NCBI GenBank assembly: GCA_043745355.1 | Contig: JAYTSY010000027.1 | Coordinates: forward strand, 1 to 52,077 | Direction: 5' to 3' | Length of the DNA stretch: 52,077 bases | DNA from: a bacterium | GTDB lineage: Bacteria > Patescibacteriota > Minisyncoccia > Phycocordibacterales > CAIZLB01 | Part shown: positions 1,902-25,175 of the stretch, one piece after another | Numbering within the stretch: position 1 is the first letter of the stretch | How the letters are laid out: every line of letters begins with the position of its first letter | Program-made: the position numbers and the translations under genes | Notes under the pieces: model-generated | Database searches by the model: none | What the model saw: the letters and a program-made list of their open reading frames with translations, nothing else | What the model was told of the DNA's origin: nothing

Positions 1902-2207
1902 ATGAAGCCCTCAACTCAAACAATTAGTAGTTTTATTTTTCTTGTCCTATCTTTTGTTCTATTGTATGTAACCAAGGATCATAAAAACTTAAATATATCA
2001 GGTATACCATTATGGTCAGATATTAGCGGATTGCTAATACTTCCACTTATCTCCTTTATACTTGCAATAAAATCTTTTAGAAAATCAGATTCATGGATAA
2101 AACTTTTTAACTTCTTACTCATTACGCTCTCTTTATTGCCAATTCTATTCTTTTTCCTTATCCTATTTGCTTCACACTGTGGTTTTTATACTGAAAAATG
2201 TAGATAG
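1902..2207 (+). CDS. Hypothetical membrane protein (3 TM)
   Basis: Three hydrophobic segments; TATAAT 6 nt upstream of the ATG. Confidence 0.65.
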   Translation: MKPSTQTISSFIFLVLSFVLLYVTKDHKNLNISGIPLWSDISGLLILPLISFILAIKSFRKSDSWIKLFNFLLITLSLLPILFFFLILFASHCGFYTEKCR

Positions 2208-14486: not shown

Positions 14487-15737
14487 TCACATTCCCCCAA
14501 TATCCCTCCGATACTGCATTCCCTGAAATGTTACAGCCTCAATTGCCTCGTATGATTTATTCAAAGCCTCGTTCAGATCATCTCCTGTTGCAGTTACCCC
14601 TATCACCCGTCCGCCATTTGTCACCATCTGACCCTCTTCGATTTTTGTCCCTGCATGAAATACCACAACATCTTTGTCTTTGATATTCTCTAACCCACAT
14701 ATCACTTTTCCCGTTTCATAAGTCCCAGGATAGCCAGCTGACGCGCATACAATGCAACATGCTGATCTGGATGACCACTTGATTTCTTGCTGTTCTAAAT
14801 TTCCATTCACACAAGCCAAAAGTATATCTACTAAATCTGTTTCAAGAATTCTCATGTATGACTGTGTTTCTGGATCTCCAAAACGTGCATTGAATTCAAT
14901 TACTTTAGGACCATCTTTTGTAAGCATAATTCCTGGGAAAAGGATTCCTTTGAAAGGAGTGCCTCGCTTTTCTAACGCTTTGATAGTTGGAATGACAACC
15001 ATCTCTTCTATGTCTTTCATCTCATCATCTGTTACCCATGGTAATGGTGCGATAGTACCCATTCCACCTGTATTTGGGCCCGTATTTCCCTCAAATATCC
15101 TCTTGTGATCCTGCGCTGCGGGGAACAATTTGATTTGTTTACCATCAGAAAATGCATGTATGGATATCTCTCTTCCCACAAGACACTCCTCAATGACGAT
15201 CTGACTGCCTGCGTTTCCGAATACCTTCTCTGTCATTATCTCTTGAAGCGCACTGCGTGCTTCATCCTCCGTGTGAGCAATGACTACACCTTTGCCGAAC
15301 GCCAACCCACTGGCCTTTATGACAACTGGAAACTTCTGCGTACCGATATATTCCTTTGCTTTTTCAATATCCTCAAACACTTCATAGGTAGCAGTTGGAA
15401 TTCCTTCTTCTTTCATAAATTTCTTAGCAAAGACCTTGGACCATTCGATTTGTGCAGCCATTTTTGTGGGGCCAAATACTGGGACTTTCAATTGTTCTAA
15501 TTCATCCGCCAGTCCTTCTGCAAGAAAGTCATCAGGACCTACGATCACTAGATTGATAGGATTATTTTTGATCCAGAGGAGCATCTCTTCGAGAGTTGTA
15601 GCTTCTACATTCGTCCCGAGTTCTGCTGTTCCTGCATTTCCAGGAGCAATAAATATATTCTTAACCTTTGGAGATTGCTTTATTTTCCAGGTGAGGGCGT
15701 GTTCTCTTCCCCCACTTCCAATGATTAAAACGTTCAT
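14487..15737 (-). CDS. purD: Phosphoribosylamine-glycine ligase
   Basis: GSGGREHAL, APGNAG, KASGLAFGKGV, QDHKR, NTGGMG, EFNARFGDPETQ, YRRDIG. Confidence 0.97.
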   Translation of the reverse strand: MNVLIIGSGGREHALTWKIKQSPKVKNIFIAPGNAGTAELGTNVEATTLEEMLLWIKNNPINLVIVGPDDFLAEGLADELEQLKVPVFGPTKMAAQIEWSKVFAKKFMKEEGIPTATYEVFEDIEKAKEYIGTQKFPVVIKASGLAFGKGVVIAHTEDEARSALQEIMTEKVFGNAGSQIVIEECLVGREISIHAFSDGKQIKLFPAAQDHKRIFEGNTGPNTGGMGTIAPLPWVTDDEMKDIEEMVVIPTIKALEKRGTPFKGILFPGIMLTKDGPKVIEFNARFGDPETQSYMRILETDLVDILLACVNGNLEQQEIKWSSRSACCIVCASAGYPGTYETGKVICGLENIKDKDVVVFHAGTKIEEGQMVTNGGRVIGVTATGDDLNEALNKSYEAIEAVTFQGMQYRRDIGGM

Positions 15738-15803
15738 GAGTGAATTGTATCAAATTTACCTAATCTTTATCTTTCTTTCATCACGCCTGCTTATTATAAT
15801 AAT

Positions 15804-16190
15804 GTGCAAAAAGACTTTGATGTTTGGAATGAAATAAAGAAAAATCTCAACGGAAAAATGCGTGTGCCCTTTTGCTATTCGAGAGAAATTTGGTGGTGCT
15901 CTTTAGGTGTAAATGTGGGGTCAGAAGAAGATGGTAAAAACAACATGTTTGAGAGACCGGTTTTGATTATAAAAGTTATTAATAAAGATATGATTCGAAT
16001 TGTCCCTTTGACGAGCAAAATAAAGGCGGACCCTCAGCATGTTCCAATAAAGTATGAGGGACGAATTGGCACACTAAGACTATCCCATCTCAAAACCATC
16101 AGCACCAAAAGACTCTCAAGAAAGCTCTGTACCCTTGATGAAATCCAATTCTCAAAAGTAATCACTGCAATTATAAATGACCTCATATAA
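15804..16190 (+). CDS. PemK/MazF family endoribonuclease toxin, no adjacent antitoxin ORF
   Basis: REIWWCSLGVNVGSEEDGK...FERPVLIIK...VPLTS...ISTKRLSRK. Confidence 0.88.
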   Translation: MQKDFDVWNEIKKNLNGKMRVPFCYSREIWWCSLGVNVGSEEDGKNNMFERPVLIIKVINKDMIRIVPLTSKIKADPQHVPIKYEGRIGTLRLSHLKTISTKRLSRKLCTLDEIQFSKVITAIINDLI

Positions 16191-16242
16191 AATCGAAACC
16201 GCCTCTTTTGGAGGCGGAATCTCGGAGCCCTAAGGCGAAAGT
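16187..16242 (-). ncRNA. Candidate small structured RNA convergent with the MazF gene
   Basis: Hairpins GCC-TTAG-GGC and CGA..CCGCCTC-CAAAA-GAGGCGG..TCG with a T-rich tail, directly downstream of a minus-strand promoter; could instead be only the holA terminator. Confidence 0.4.
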
Positions 16243-16248
16243 ACTATT

Positions 16249-16276
16249 ATATTAGCAAATCCACGAATGCAGTCAA
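16249..16276 (-). promoter_or_regulatory. Candidate sigma70 promoter antisense to the MazF gene
   Basis: Minus strand TTGACT (16276-16271), 16 bp, extended -10 TGc-TAATAT (16254-16249). Confidence 0.55.
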
Positions 16277-16279
16277 GTT

Positions 16280-16984
16280 TTACGAAACCAAACTAAATTT
16301 TTCCAACTCCACCAAAAAATCTATCTCACCTCGGTGAGCCAAGTGATACATATCAACAAGCCGATCAAGTGCTTTTTCTAACGAATTATCCTTCCACAAT
16401 TTCTCCGCTCGAGAGGCTTTTTGTTGGACATAAGGGGACAGTCCCCGCGCACCACTGCGCGCATGCATCAATGATTTAAATTGCCACCACAAGACTCCGT
16501 GAATTTCCTCTGCTACTGTTTCATCTCGAAGGAGCTCTTGAAACAAAACCCATGCTTTTTTGTTGTCTCTCATTGCAATCGCTTCGGCGTATGGGAACAC
16601 AGCCCCTGTTTCTTTTTTCTGTTTTTCAACAATGTCGCATTGCTGAATCTTTGTCGCGTACTTTTCAATCTTTTTTAGATCAGCTGCAAGAATCTTTTCT
16701 TCGATCAAGATACAAATATGCTCTGACTTGCCCATCTCTTTTATCGATTTACCGACTACCTCTCCCGAGATCGTATTATTTAAAAGGTTATCGATAACGA
16801 TAATATATTTCGGAGAAAATAAACCCGTTCCACTGAGGAGCTCGTTTAGCATAGAGTCATTCCAATTTTCACCATTCAATCGAAAGAGCGACGCATCAGG
16901 ACGTTTTTTCTGAAGCGTGTCTATGAGCTCAGTTAGTTTTGAGCGTGCCTTTGTGAAATCTTTTCCGTAGATGACGTATAGCAT
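16280..16984 (-). CDS. holA: DNA polymerase III delta subunit
   Basis: MLYVIYGKD, GLFSPKYIIVI, FPYAEAI...KKAW and GLSPYVQQK; follows polA; start set to ATG 16984. Confidence 0.8.
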   Translation of the reverse strand: MLYVIYGKDFTKARSKLTELIDTLQKKRPDASLFRLNGENWNDSMLNELLSGTGLFSPKYIIVIDNLLNNTISGEVVGKSIKEMGKSEHICILIEEKILAADLKKIEKYATKIQQCDIVEKQKKETGAVFPYAEAIAMRDNKKAWVLFQELLRDETVAEEIHGVLWWQFKSLMHARSGARGLSPYVQQKASRAEKLWKDNSLEKALDRLVDMYHLAHRGEIDFLVELEKFSLVS

Positions 16985-16986
16985 AT

Positions 16987-19437
16987 TTATATTTCCTGCA
17001 TCTCTCCCCAATTATCACCGACATTGGCCGAGCTCACTATCGGAATATCTTTTGTTTCTTTTAATGTGAGAATATTTTCCATTACTTCTCTGATCTTTTT
17101 TGATACTTTTTTAACATGATCATCTTTTACTTCGTACACAAGCTCATCATGGACCTGCATGAGGAGTCTCGCGTCGTCTTTCCACCCCTCACGAATAAGC
17201 ATTGCATCGACTTCGATCATTGCGAGCTTCACAATATCAGCCTCTGTTCCTTGAATAGGTGCATTGATTGCCATACGTTCTGCAGAGGCACGGATGAATG
17301 GGAGGGGTGAACGGAATCCTTCGAAGTATCGGCGCCGTCCATAGTATGTTTCTGTAAACCCATCGCGCTTTGCCTCGACTTTCACCCGTTCGAGATACAC
17401 CGCGAGCTCTTCAAAATTGCGGAAATATTCGCTGAGAAGTTGTTGAGCTTCTTCGCGAGTGCCACCGAGATTTGTTCGAAGTGCATTCACTCCCATACCA
17501 AACAAGATACCAAAGTTGATCACCTTGGCTTTCCGTCGCATATCTTTGGTCACATCCACGGCCGGGACCCCAAAGACTTGTGCGGCGACACCCGTGTGTA
17601 CGTCTGTGCCGTTCTTGAAAATATCAATCATTTTACTATCTCCAGAAAGTATTGCGGCGATACGGAGCTCTATCTGTGAGTAGTCGAGGGACACGAGCTT
17701 GAAACCTTTTTCAGCAATAAACGCATGTCGTATACGTTGTCCGAGTTCAGTCTTGATAGGAATATTTTGAAGCCCTGGGTTTTGAGAAGCGAGGCGGCCA
17801 GTTGCAGCACCGGTCTGCAAAAATGTCGCATGCACTCGATCTCTGACATCGACAAGTGTCGGTAATGGATCAATATATGTACCGAGCAGTTTGGACAATT
17901 CGCGATGTTGCAAAACGAGATCAATGACGGGGTGCGCGCCACGCATTTTTTCGAGCTCGGATTCTTTGGTTGACCGCGCACCCCCCGCGGTCTTCTTCAT
18001 GCGCACTCCTTTTTCTGGCTCTAATGCCAACTTGTCGAATAATATTTCCCCGAGTTGTTTCGGCGAACTGATATTAAAATCAACACCAGATTCCTTCCAA
18101 ATTGATTTTTCAAGTTTCGAAAGCTCAACATGATATTTTTTTGAAAGTTCTTTCAAAAATTTCACATCAATTTTTACTCCCACCGCATGCATCTCATTAA
18201 TTATCGGTATGAGTGGCACCTCTATCTTTTCATACACTTCTTCGGATCGACCCTTCTCTTTTAATTTATTGCGCAAAATACGCTGACATTCATCAATATC
18301 TTCGCTGTTACAAAAATCATACACGTCTTCGAGTGTGGGATTAGTCTTGTTGGAATCAACGACAAACAACATCACCTTGAGCTCCTGGAGTTTCTGAGGG
18401 GGAACATTTGCAAACAATCCCTCTACAATTCTCTTTTCTTTTTTGATATCCTCCTTTTTATCTTGAGGCTTTCCTGCGATCTTTTCTGCGACAATCTTTA
18501 TTCGCGCAATGAGTGATCGAAATTCCATATCTCTAAAGAATTTTTCTACCGGCTCCATTTCAAACGTTTCCCTCCATGTTTTTGGCGGAACAATAAATTG
18601 GACTGGTGCATCTCGGCGAATGGTTGCAAGCATTTTACTGAATAATGCTTCTTCCTCGCCATTTTTTAGTAGCTCAATGATACGATCTGTCACCCCAGCA
18701 GCCTTCACTTTTGCTGAATCTTTTTTTAATACTTTATATATCTCCTCCACTGTTCCAAAGGCAGTAATGAGAGTTGTCGCTGTTTTCTCCCCGATACCAG
18801 AAATGCCAATGATATTATCAGACGGATCACCACGTAGCCCTTTGTAATCTGGCAACAATTTGGGTGGAAAACCAAAACGTGCCATGACAGCGTCTTCGTT
18901 ATATATCACGGTATCTTTGATTCCTTTTTTCAAGGTGAATACTTTGACTCGATCATCAACGACCAACTGCAAAGTGTCCATATCTCCTGAAGCAATCATT
19001 ACATCAAATTCTTCCTCGCATGGTTTTCCATCACAAATCACTTTGTTGTCCAATATCTGTTGCACGATTGTTCCCAACATATCGTCCGCCTCGAATCCAG
19101 GTTTGTCATACATTGGAATATTAAATGCTTCAAACAATTTTCGTGAAATGATCAATTGTTCAACAAGTGCAGGATCTGATTTCTTGCGTCCCGCTTTGTA
19201 CGCATCATATGCTTCGTGACGATATGTGGGCTGAGGCAAATCGTAACAAGCAATGACATGGTCCGGATTAAATTTCTCAATGATTCCCATGAGCATTGTG
19301 GAGAGTCCGTAGATAGCACCAGTCGGTACGCCCGAGCTTGATGCAAAATCAGGCAATGCATGATACGCACGATGAATAATTGCGTGCGAATCGAGAAGAA
19401 CAACTAATTTATTTTTTTCTTTTGAGGATTTTACCAT
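16987..19437 (-). CDS. polA: DNA polymerase I
   Basis: 5'-3' exonuclease (LDSHAIIHRAYHA, EADD, GDPSDNIIG) and family A polymerase (DYSQIELR, KVINFGILFG, NAPIQGTEAD, QVHDE). Confidence 0.98.
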   Translation of the reverse strand: MVKSSKEKNKLVVLLDSHAIIHRAYHALPDFASSSGVPTGAIYGLSTMLMGIIEKFNPDHVIACYDLPQPTYRHEAYDAYKAGRKKSDPALVEQLIISRKLFEAFNIPMYDKPGFEADDMLGTIVQQILDNKVICDGKPCEEEFDVMIASGDMDTLQLVVDDRVKVFTLKKGIKDTVIYNEDAVMARFGFPPKLLPDYKGLRGDPSDNIIGISGIGEKTATTLITAFGTVEEIYKVLKKDSAKVKAAGVTDRIIELLKNGEEEALFSKMLATIRRDAPVQFIVPPKTWRETFEMEPVEKFFRDMEFRSLIARIKIVAEKIAGKPQDKKEDIKKEKRIVEGLFANVPPQKLQELKVMLFVVDSNKTNPTLEDVYDFCNSEDIDECQRILRNKLKEKGRSEEVYEKIEVPLIPIINEMHAVGVKIDVKFLKELSKKYHVELSKLEKSIWKESGVDFNISSPKQLGEILFDKLALEPEKGVRMKKTAGGARSTKESELEKMRGAHPVIDLVLQHRELSKLLGTYIDPLPTLVDVRDRVHATFLQTGAATGRLASQNPGLQNIPIKTELGQRIRHAFIAEKGFKLVSLDYSQIELRIAAILSGDSKMIDIFKNGTDVHTGVAAQVFGVPAVDVTKDMRRKAKVINFGILFGMGVNALRTNLGGTREEAQQLLSEYFRNFEELAVYLERVKVEAKRDGFTETYYGRRRYFEGFRSPLPFIRASAERMAINAPIQGTEADIVKLAMIEVDAMLIREGWKDDARLLMQVHDELVYEVKDDHVKKVSKKIREVMENILTLKETKDIPIVSSANVGDNWGEMQEI

Positions 19438-23851: not shown

Positions 23852-23917
23852 GGTCAGACCCCTTTTTGCCTCAAAGTGAAAGATTAGAATTGGAATAAAA
23901 AAAGGGGGTCTGACCCC
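23850..23917. repeat. Inverted pair of REP-like palindromes GGGGTC-W-GACCCC
   Basis: GGGGTCAGACCCC (23850-23862) and GGGGTCTGACCCC (23905-23917), with facing T and A runs. Confidence 0.8.
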
Positions 23918-23918
23918 T

Positions 23919-24093
23919 AAAAAGAAAACAGCCCTTTGAATCTCTAAGCAATGCCTTCGGTCCTAAGACTGAAGGCCCGATAGCCCTTTAAGGATGGATT
24001 CAGGAACGTGCTCGAAAGTCGCACCAAACCGTCCTATAAGAAAAACCGATAAACCCGTGAGAGTTGTATTGCTTAGAGATTCAAGGAGCCGTT
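23919..24093 (-). ncRNA. ~170-nt structured ncRNA, possibly 6S RNA
   Basis: 26-bp closing stem with 25 pairs (24068-24093 with 23927-23952), an internal 10-bp hairpin, a consensus promoter upstream and a U-tract downstream. Confidence 0.6.
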
Positions 24094-24100
24094 AAAAACT

Positions 24101-24129
24101 ATATTAGCATACAAGTCTTTTTATGTCAA
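24101..24129 (-). promoter_or_regulatory. Near-consensus sigma70 promoter for the ncRNA, overlapping the ruvB start codon
   Basis: TTGACA (24129-24124), 17 bp, TGc-TAATAT (24106-24101). Confidence 0.75.
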
Positions 24130-25175
24130 GCACACCAATATCATCCTCTGACAACCCCATCACTGCGAAAGACGAGGAGATTGCTGTGAATCCGGAGGAG
24201 CAAGCACTTGATCAGACGTTGCGCCCACATCGTTTCGATGACTATATCGGTCAAGAAAACATAAAAAACAATCTTCATATATTATTGACGGCAGCAAAAG
24301 AGCGTAATCATCCACCAGAGCACCTTCTCTTCTATGGGCCACCTGGTCTCGGCAAGACCACTCTCGCTCACCTCATCGCCAAAGAGACTGGTGCTCAAAT
24401 GAAGGTAACATCTGGGCCTGCAATCGAACGCGTGGGTGATCTCGCCTCGGTTTTGACCAACCTTTCTCCGGGAGACATATTGTTCGTGGATGAAATTCAT
24501 CGTTTGAATAAAACGGTCGAGGAAGTCCTCTATCCTGCTATGGAATCAGGTCAAATCGATATTATTATTGGCAAAGGTCCGTCGGCTCGCACTATCCAAC
24601 TCGACTTGCTTCCTTTTACATTGATCGCAGCGACTACTCGTATTGCGATGATTTCCTCCCCTCTTCGTTCGCGGTTTTCTGGGGGAGTATTTCGACTGGA
24701 ATTTTATACAGAAGGAGAAATTGAAAAGATTGTGAAGCGATCAGCGCAGATCTTGGGGATCGAGGTCGAGAGTTCAGCATTGATTGAAATTGCAAAACGA
24801 AGTCGATCAACTCCCCGAACAGCAAACTATCTTCTAAAGCGTTGCCGTGATTTTGCGCAAATTAAAAAGACAGCACTGACAAAAGACGTTGTCGATGGCG
24901 CATTAAAATTATTGGGCATCGACGACAAAGGTCTCACTCTTTCTGACCGAAAGATTTTGGAGACTGTAGTCAATAAATATAATGGCGGGCCTGTGGGGCT
25001 GAACACCATCGCAGCATCACTTTCTGAAGACCAGGCGACAATCGAAGAGTTCAACGAGCCATATCTTATTCAAATCGGTTTCATCGAGCGTACTCCACGT
25101 GGACGTATTGTGACAAAAGCGGGCTACGCACATCTGGAGATGGAATATCCTGACGAGAAGCAGCTTTCGTTATAA
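24123..25175 (+). CDS. ruvB: Holliday junction helicase RuvB
   Basis: LRPHRFDDYIGQ, GPPGLGKTTLA, DEIHR, RTPRGR. Confidence 0.98.
   Translation: MSSTPISSSDNPITAKDEEIAVNPEEQALDQTLRPHRFDDYIGQENIKNNLHILLTAAKERNHPPEHLLFYGPPGLGKTTLAHLIAKETGAQMKVTSGPAIERVGDLASVLTNLSPGDILFVDEIHRLNKTVEEVLYPAMESGQIDIIIGKGPSARTIQLDLLPFTLIAATTRIAMISSPLRSRFSGGVFRLEFYTEGEIEKIVKRSAQILGIEVESSALIEIAKRSRSTPRTANYLLKRCRDFAQIKKTALTKDVVDGALKLLGIDDKGLTLSDRKILETVVNKYNGGPVGLNTIAASLSEDQATIEEFNEPYLIQIGFIERTPRGRIVTKAGYAHLEMEYPDEKQLSL

Follow-up and report, generated by a model that had tools for sequence, protein, structure and literature searches.

A MazF-family toxin gene with a conserved, convergent small RNA gene in Patescibacteria: a candidate RNA antitoxin

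A MazF toxin gene and a small RNA gene converge between purD and holA

The 52,077 bp contig JAYTSY010000027.1 of a patescibacterial genome (assembly GCA_043745355.1), referred to here in its whole length as the window, carries between the genes purD and holA a gene for a MazF/PemK-family endoribonuclease toxin and, converging on it from the opposite strand, a predicted small RNA gene of about 55 nt. MazF is among the best-studied of bacterial toxins, and its control by the protein MazE is textbook knowledge; at this locus the RNA gene occupies the place next to the toxin. The features of the locus are as follows.

15788–15800, plus strand: candidate -10 region of the toxin promoter (TGcTTATTATAAT), read from the sequence
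15804–16190, plus strand: MazF/PemK-family endoribonuclease toxin gene, GTG start, 128 aa, Pfam PF02452
16249–16276, minus strand: promoter of the small RNA, from a promoter scan, with -35 box TTGACT (16276–16271), 16-nt spacer and extended -10 box TGcTAATAT (16257–16249)
16188–16242, minus strand: small RNA gene of ~55 nt, predicted ends ~16242 and ~16188 (covariance model R1 and fold), with the layout 5'-ACUUUC-[GCC UUAG GGC]-U-CCGAG-AUU-[CCGCCUC CAAAA GAGGCGG]-UUUCG-AUUUUA-3'
16227–16236, minus strand: hairpin 1 (GCC-UUAG-GGC), a covarying stem in 68 homologues
16221–16225, minus strand: invariant junction core CCGAG, with its partner CG at 16195–16194 on the 3' side of hairpin 2
16194–16224, minus strand: hairpin 2, the terminator stem-loop, with outer stem CGAGA/UUUCG and inner stem 16217–16199
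16187–16193, minus strand: U-rich tail of the small RNA (terminator scan), overlapping the toxin stop codon at 16188–16190

The toxin open reading frame (ORF) matches Pfam PF02452 (PemK_toxin) with an E value of 5e-13 and 49.6 bits (curated cut-off 23.1), and its AlphaFold2 model (mean per-residue confidence, pLDDT, 80.5) consists of an N-terminal helix (residues 3–17), a MazF beta-barrel and a C-terminal helix. The top Foldseek folds for this model are MoxT, BsMazF and SaMazF, with probability 1.00 and template modelling (TM) scores of 0.64–0.75, and the best folds in the PDB are those of Bacillus anthracis MoxT, the RNA-bound B. subtilis MazF and the MazFs of Staphylococcus aureus and Mycobacterium tuberculosis; ToxN is absent among the best structural matches. 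An earlier note on this DNA had seen the RP and PLTS active-site motifs in the toxin, and both hold up: ERP occupies residues 50–52 and PLTS residues 68–71, and in a profile alignment to B. subtilis MazF (4mdx) R51 of FERP aligns with the catalytic R25 and T70 of PLTS with T48. R51 is invariant and T70 nearly so among 30 homologues, in which the N-terminal KDFDxWNxxKK, W30, W31, E50, P52 and P68 are also invariant or nearly so. The catalytic residues and the fold are those of classical toxic MazFs. The same note had likened the protein to the toxins of type III systems, which is right as to its being a MazF/PemK RNase and wrong as to any likeness to ToxN, since its folds are those of classical MazFs; it belongs with the true MazFs, apart from the ToxN-like toxins of type III.

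This toxin belongs to a clade of 1,069 clusters at 50% identity (E ≤ 1e-10), distinguished by the N-terminal helix and by a 5-residue insertion ahead of the catalytic RP; among the best 150 of these clusters the alignment starts at about residue 1 in almost all. The clade is centred on the Patescibacteria, or Candidate Phyla Radiation (CPR), and has members in metagenome-assembled genomes (MAGs) labelled as Proteobacteria and on Campylobacter and Helicobacter plasmids. One predicted protein of 3,945 aa (P0224) has 13 separate stretches that match the clade (E 8e-22) and would be a giant multi-MazF-repeat protein.

The candidate -10 box of the toxin gene ends only 3–7 nt ahead of the GTG start codon, and this short distance suggests that the toxin mRNA is leaderless or nearly so. 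Many homologous toxin loci are arranged alike, with a -10-like box 6–9 nt ahead of the start codon and no Shine-Dalgarno sequence. The promoter of the small RNA is a much better one than that of the toxin.

No protein antitoxin accompanies the toxin. Between its gene and the divergent purD, which starts at 15737 on the minus strand, there are 66 bp, and between it and the stop codon of the convergent holA (16280) there are 89 bp; because these gaps are so short no further ORF fits beside it; neither contains an antitoxin ORF, so that the earlier claim of a 66-bp and an 89-bp gap without room for a MazE-type ORF is confirmed in each particular. The same is true of the genome's paralogues, none of the five MazF genes having an adjacent antitoxin ORF. 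A search of the whole 659-kb genome (85% complete) for PF04014 (MazE/AbrB) gave no match above the cut-off, ribbon-helix-helix and other antitoxin folds not having been searched genome-wide. A protein antitoxin hidden on the antisense strand was considered and rejected, the longest antisense ORF near the toxin stop codon varying from 0 to 123 aa across the loci and being unconserved.

The features of the small RNA gene agree well with what had been predicted for it, namely a minus-strand promoter of the form TTGACT-16-TGcTAATAT and a two-hairpin RNA of ~55 nt with a U-rich tail over the toxin stop codon. The start of the RNA was placed 7 nt past the -10 box and its 3' end at the U-tract. A terminator scan finds a terminator-like, GC-rich hairpin of 7 bp at 16217–16199 (minus strand) with the tail TTTCGATTTT; the tail UUUCGAUUUU runs into the toxin stop codon, with which the 3' end of the RNA overlaps by 1–3 nt in the window. 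Folding of the predicted RNA gives two hairpins with an energy of -21.7 kcal/mol (z = -2.87 relative to shuffles), and the covariance model R1 described below matches the window copy at 16183–16248 (minus strand) with 58.6 bits and E 8e-15. Promoter-like sites are rarer around the locus than expected by chance (5 in 6.5 kb, against 13.8 in shuffles), which argues that the promoter match is not background. We infer that the RNA is transcribed in this organism. A search of the region 15000–17000 with Rfam 15 gave only noise (E ≥ 0.73), and at the gathering threshold the whole window yields two tRNAs and nothing else. The promoter motif TGCTAATATA, preceded by TTGACA, recurs at 24101–24132 (minus strand), where the earlier note had placed the promoter of a non-coding RNA sharing this sequence. 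That second site, at 23919–24132 (minus strand), has a strong promoter of the form TTGACA-17-TGCTAATAT and an unannotated non-coding RNA of ~170–190 nt that ends at a GC hairpin near 23900–23925; it belongs to no Rfam family, its sole matches at E ≤ 1 being noise.

The RNA is conserved in structure, strand and promoter

Eighty homologous toxin loci were collected from other genomes, mostly of Patescibacteria, with a few from MAGs labelled Hyphomicrobiaceae, Gammaproteobacteria, Verrucomicrobiota or Bdellovibrionales. Their 3' flanks have a common pattern, stop-AAUCGAAAC-[hairpin]-GUUUCUCGGAG-GCC-CGAA-GGC, and the covariance model R1 was built from 60 of them.

Both hairpins show compensatory change. 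In hairpin 2, compensatory changes are present in 8 of 9 pairs and 94% of cells are paired. The stem of hairpin 1, which lies outside the terminator, covaries as well, appearing among the 68 homologues as GGCC/GGCU, GGGC/GCCU, GGC/GCC, GCC/GGC, GGAC/GUCC and UGCC/GGCA; UUCG forms its loop in 35 of 68 copies. (Hairpin 1 was analysed by anchored parsing, as RNAalifold on a MAFFT alignment misses it through a register shift.) Overall, 89% of cells are paired compared with 66% in shuffles, and double-change cells number 176 compared with 56; the observed covariation score was reached by none of 500 shuffles, and the signal collapses when the partners are shifted by one column.

The strand of the RNA is fixed by several features together. 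The UUCG and GNRA loops and the G.U closing pairs exist on the minus strand only, and the 8 nt past hairpin 2 contain 4.2 U on the RNA strand compared with 1.1 on the toxin strand. A promoter lies in the same orientation at the homologous position, scoring 9.7 out of 12 over 68 loci compared with 7.6 in shuffles; the -35 box is TTGAC[TA] in 49 of these loci and the -10 box is TATACT in 28, and in 56 the -10 box ends 22–26 nt from the CCGAG core.

The junction between the hairpins is strictly conserved. Six nucleotides (C24, G26, A27, G28, C54 and G55), corresponding to the CCGAG before hairpin 2 and the CG after it, are invariant in 60 sequences, while the toxins beside them share only 40–60% identity. 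A reading of CCGAG/CGA as a kink-turn is not claimed, since the A after the CG is often U. A DNA site, integron attC-like or other, was likewise set aside in view of the dispersed copies, the conserved promoter and the strand-specific, RNA-like features.

The RNA gene follows the toxin clade and not the neighbouring gene

The distribution of R1 matches is closely tied to the toxin. There are 72 hits in the 320 kb of 85 sources, and each lies immediately 3' of a MazF-clade gene, on the strand opposite to it. The search gave one further row, which falls within the L078 element on the toxin strand and is a partial match of 24 nt (18 bits, E 0.054). In 151 genomes chosen phylum-wide, R1 matches in three, and all six hits abut a MazF-clade gene or (G069:C1) a remnant of one. 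Among 41 relatives, 14 have matches, none of them among the four other genomes of the same genus; outside the present genome 16 of 20 hits abut a toxin gene or remnant, and the other four, one of which is at a contig end, have no toxin match beside them.

The genome itself contains five MazF-clade paralogues in 659 kb, and all five have a GC hairpin straight after the stop codon (a terminator on the opposite strand), a short second hairpin, and an opposite-strand -10 box with TTGACA. Besides the window locus these are:

C9:52430–52880: MazF paralogue with a convergent small RNA gene
C3:16719–17230: MazF paralogue with a convergent small RNA gene
C9:86250–86753: MazF paralogue with a convergent small RNA gene
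C12:7790–8348: MazF paralogue with a convergent small RNA gene

One of the genome's paralogues is located between livH and livM.

Loss of the two partners is unequal. Only one of the 80 loci (L064) has an intact toxin gene without a recognisable RNA, and next to five or six decayed toxin genes the RNA has been retained. RNA genes that look intact (R1 E values of 4e-5 to 3e-11) accompany frameshifted, stop-interrupted or truncated toxin genes at these positions:

G069:C1:34136–34579
G161:C21:32571–33023
G169:C2:321631–322075
G166:C5:17739–17920
G171:C35:1529–1743

That the RNA outlasts the toxin, and intact toxins are almost never without the RNA, is the asymmetry expected of an antidote.

It could be supposed that the element is just the terminator of holA. 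This is excluded, because the element follows the toxin into unrelated contexts and is present at all five paralogues, and because genomes of the same genus keep polA-holA with unrelated genes 20–50 nt past holA and no such element. (As an empty-site comparison these genomes are uninformative, synteny downstream of holA not being kept and purD lying elsewhere.) The conserved association of the RNA gene is with the toxin and not with the neighbouring gene, and its linkage to this toxin clade is exclusive. The earlier note had proposed examining the 3' flanks of orphan PemK/MazF homologues for a conserved, covarying RNA and promoter that are independent of the neighbouring gene, and had named a mere holA terminator as the alternative; such an RNA and promoter were found, tracking the toxin and not holA.

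Variant RNAs and overlaps with the toxin gene

R1 does not recognise every RNA of this kind. It misses three of the five in this genome, whose architecture is the same and whose junctions are different. The C12 locus has two RNA genes in tandem, the second of which shares with the RNA of the C9:86250–86753 locus an ACGA-CCCCGCCCG junction in place of CCGAG.

The homologous loci without an R1 hit mostly carry a second form, class B, with the layout promoter-ACAAAU-GGCUUCGGCC-U-CGCC[stem]GGC-AAAC:

L025, L043, L045, L050, L055, L062, L067, L079 and L081, minus strand, ~40–110 nt past the toxin stop codon: class-B RNA loci, with the same promoter and a UUCG hairpin 1

Class-B RNAs have no U-tail on either strand and no obvious terminator, and the toxins paired with them mostly end in ...LFG, LFP or LFD. 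A long form of the RNA with three hairpins is present at two loci. Tandem duplicates are rare, and each copy apparently has its own promoter, as in the C12 locus and at L006, where the RNA gene is duplicated past one toxin gene (1871–1936 and 1961–2028, minus strand).

The toxin ORF overlaps the RNA gene in ~19 of 68 loci, about a quarter. In some it reads right through (L012, L026, L028, L035, L041 and L085; proteins P0064, P0093 and P0117), and the conserved-looking C-terminal tails ..G(I/F)SE..P of these read-through toxins are the translated RNA core.

Proposed function and alternatives

We propose that the toxin and RNA genes form a two-gene toxin-antitoxin module in which a MazF endoribonuclease would be held in check by a convergent RNA of ~55 nt in place of MazE. 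A near-consensus promoter of its own would drive the RNA, whose amount would probably far exceed that of a weakly expressed and probably leaderless toxin mRNA. With its two hairpins joined by the CCGAG...CG junction, the RNA would bind the toxin and block the RNase groove, the family-specific N-terminal helix being a likely additional RNA contact; the action would be type III-like, with a single RNA unit and no repeat array. Since the RNA gene adjoins the 3' end of the toxin gene or extends into it, a second, antisense layer is probable; it would consist of pairing with read-through toxin transcripts and of promoter collision; the two layers may act together. Synthesis of the RNA would end if the module were lost or if a phage shut off host transcription, and the MazF thereby set free would cleave the RNA of the cell.

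The earlier note had allowed for both modes, direct neutralisation of the toxin and a cis-antisense action. These proposals are of unequal strength. To judge from the sequence comparisons, the small RNA is probably the antitoxin of the toxin, in whatever mode. That it neutralises the toxin by binding directly to the protein is a tentative proposal, which we nonetheless favour over antisense pairing alone. The argument is that an invariant junction and closed tetraloops would be superfluous in a cis-antisense RNA and point to a sequence-specific protein partner. The candidate for this role is the toxin, whose N-terminal helix is basic and specific to the clade and which is the only co-inherited protein; closed, stable tetraloops are, besides, poor sites for antisense kissing contacts. 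More tentative again is the full statement, that throughout a clade of ~1,000 clusters MazE has given way to an RNA of ~55 nt, one unit with two hairpins, which binds and inhibits the enzyme through CCGAG...CG and the N-terminal helix; this would constitute a repeat-less, type III-like class.

Several observations weigh against direct binding, and most of them speak for the rival that we take most seriously while thinking it rather unlikely, namely antisense control of the type I kind and nothing else. Under that explanation the RNA would pair with read-through toxin transcripts in a perfect duplex of 30–55 bp, with decay by RNase III and promoter collision. The strictly convergent layout, in which the RNA always abuts or overlaps the toxin 3' end, is typical of antisense systems, and B. 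subtilis txpA/RatA and bsrG/SR4 act through just such 3' overlaps; an RNA that binds protein could sit anywhere. With the U-tract on the RNA strand (4.2 versus 1.1 U), read-through of toxin transcripts into the RNA gene is to be expected, the toxin ORF itself runs into that gene in about a quarter of the loci (~19 of 68), and class-B RNAs, lacking a U-tail, would continue into the toxin gene as antisense transcripts. Through the variable hairpin 2 the paralogues would differ in specificity. Two modules of class A, the form with CCGAG, have an identical invariant core in one genome, and recognition of that core would not alone insulate them from one another. The AlphaFold2 model of the toxin is silent on RNA binding. 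The Campylobacter antitoxin CjrA, encoded by cjrA on the plasmid pVir, is described as an antisense antitoxin of type I. Antisense pairing alone, however, leaves the invariant CCGAG...CG and the conserved UUCG loop unexplained, complementarity in cis being automatic, and pairing would not readily nucleate at closed UUCG and GNRA tetraloops. Pairing of the RNA with the 5' region of the toxin gene was considered and rejected, RNAduplex showing no excess of complementarity over shuffles (mean z 0.04 over 43 loci). The toxin, moreover, is a soluble RNase of 128 aa and not a small membrane peptide of the known type I families.

Two further explanations would do without an antitoxin. The RNA might be a substrate, cofactor or guide of a MazF-like enzyme that is harmless through low expression or narrow specificity; the strict linkage would suit such a partner, the conserved junction could be a recognition or cleavage site, five modules in 659 kb are many for a pure addiction element, and the weak, probably leaderless GTG start suggests a very low level of toxin. 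We consider this improbable, as the persistence of RNAs beside decayed toxins, together with the rarity of intact toxins without one, fits an antidote better than a cofactor, as the enzyme has the fold and the catalytic residues of a classical toxic MazF, and as an RNA antitoxin is reported on the plasmid that bears the homologous Campylobacter toxin. Very improbable is the explanation that there is no functional RNA gene and that the element is a terminator acting in both directions, beside a sequence that resembles a promoter by chance, or else a DNA site for recombination or mobility of a cassette. Hairpin 2 is admittedly a plausible holA terminator in this window, and the patchy occurrence of the modules between housekeeping genes such as livH and livM suggests mobility. 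Against this, the element tracks the toxin and not the neighbour, genomes of the same genus keep polA-holA without it, conserved -35 and -10 boxes recur at a constant distance, and hairpin 1, although outside the terminator, covaries, its RNA-type tetraloops and G.U pairs being confined to one strand; the copies are dispersed and form no array, no recombinase gene was seen beside the five copies in this genome, and the convergent RNA of the homologous Campylobacter toxin is visible on Northern blots.

Significance

An RNA partner for the MazF family has barely been described before. Full-text literature searches returned no description of the breadth of this family (~1,000 clusters) or of its conserved structured RNA, and the CPR-wide MazF-RNA module, the structured RNA family and the explanation it offers for many 'orphan' MazFs are undescribed in the literature searched. 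A MazF subfamily of this size, with five copies in one 659-kb genome, is paired with a structured RNA outside the Rfam catalogue. If that RNA is the antidote, many annotations of 'orphan' MazFs are wrong, censuses of toxin-antitoxin systems in the ultra-small CPR bacteria miss a major class, and the boundary between types I, II and III becomes blurred. The module would also offer a compact pair of RNase and RNA inhibitor, 0.5 kb in all, for studies of RNA-protein recognition, phage defence or plasmid addiction.

Comparison with known systems

The type II systems MazEF and PemIK share with this module the toxin family, the fold and the catalytic Arg and Thr. They differ in that no MazE-like gene is adjacent to the present toxin or above the cut-off in the genome. 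The toxin differs as well, with a conserved additional helix at its N terminus and 5 residues inserted ahead of the catalytic RP. To judge by its gene content, the module is not of type II, since it is without a protein antitoxin.

Type I systems with convergent antisense RNAs that overlap the toxin gene at its 3' end include B. subtilis txpA/RatA and bsrG/SR4 and the par locus of Enterococcus faecalis (fst/RNA II). They resemble the module in their converging toxin and RNA genes, common terminator region and strong RNA promoter, and in the possibility of a duplex between 3' ends. However, their toxins are hydrophobic peptides of fewer than 60 aa, whereas the toxin here is a soluble RNase of 128 aa, for which reason the module is not a classical type I system. 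The overlap here is also short, comprising the terminator and stop codon in most loci, and the RNA family has invariant nucleotides and closed tetraloops that complementarity does not demand.

The likeness to type III systems (ToxIN, AbiQ/antiQ, CptIN and TenpIN) lies in an RNase with a Kid/MazF-like barrel, an adjacent small structured RNA and the lack of a protein antitoxin and, if our proposal is right, in direct inhibition of the protein by the RNA. The toxin, on the other hand, is a bona fide PemK/MazF by Pfam and not ToxN/AbiQ, CptN or TenpN, and PADLOC has no model that matches the toxin locus of the window. The antitoxins of type III are tandem repeat arrays located upstream on the same strand, whereas here one RNA unit lies downstream on the opposite strand and has a promoter to itself; Tandem Repeats Finder returned no rows for 15500–16600. 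The module is not a member of the type III families, though by analogy it may work like one.

The closest parallel is on the plasmid pVir of Campylobacter jejuni 81-176, so that the module, on a CPR chromosome, has a counterpart on the plasmid of an epsilonproteobacterial pathogen. The gene pVir0047 (WP_011117588.1; 30634–31038) is annotated as a PemK/MazF toxin and is homologous to the toxin of the window (BLASTP, 35% identity over 102 aa, E 7e-18), the two having in common an N-terminal FDxWNExKK, a GSE..GK loop, RPVL and VPL(S/T)SK; as in the window, no adjacent protein antitoxin is annotated. On the opposite strand, from 31119 to 31043, lies the 77-nt small RNA CJpv3, which was detected by Northern blotting and which far exceeds the toxin mRNA in abundance, with 16164 transcription start site reads compared with 28 for the toxin (Dugar et al. 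2013, supplement). The promoter of CJpv3 is of the extended -10 kind, and the end of the 3' hairpin lies 5 nt past the toxin stop (31038), comparable to the window RNA (~16242–16188) and the toxin end at 16190. CJpv3 is not a member of the same RNA family, having three hairpins (by eye) and no CCGAG core, and with its filters off R1 finds nothing beside pVir0047, the best score on pVir being 10.8 bits and elsewhere. CJpv3 and pVir0047 are probably the cjrA/cjpT pair of Shen et al. 2016. A later paper citing Shen et al. 2016 names the antisense small RNA CjrA as RNA antitoxin in a type I system of strain 81-176. The earlier note had held the arrangement in the window to be unlike known type II or repeat-array type III loci; this stands in that there is neither a MazE nor an array, while pVir0047 and CJpv3 mean that it is not wholly without precedent. 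The pVir module is the same architecture, observed experimentally.

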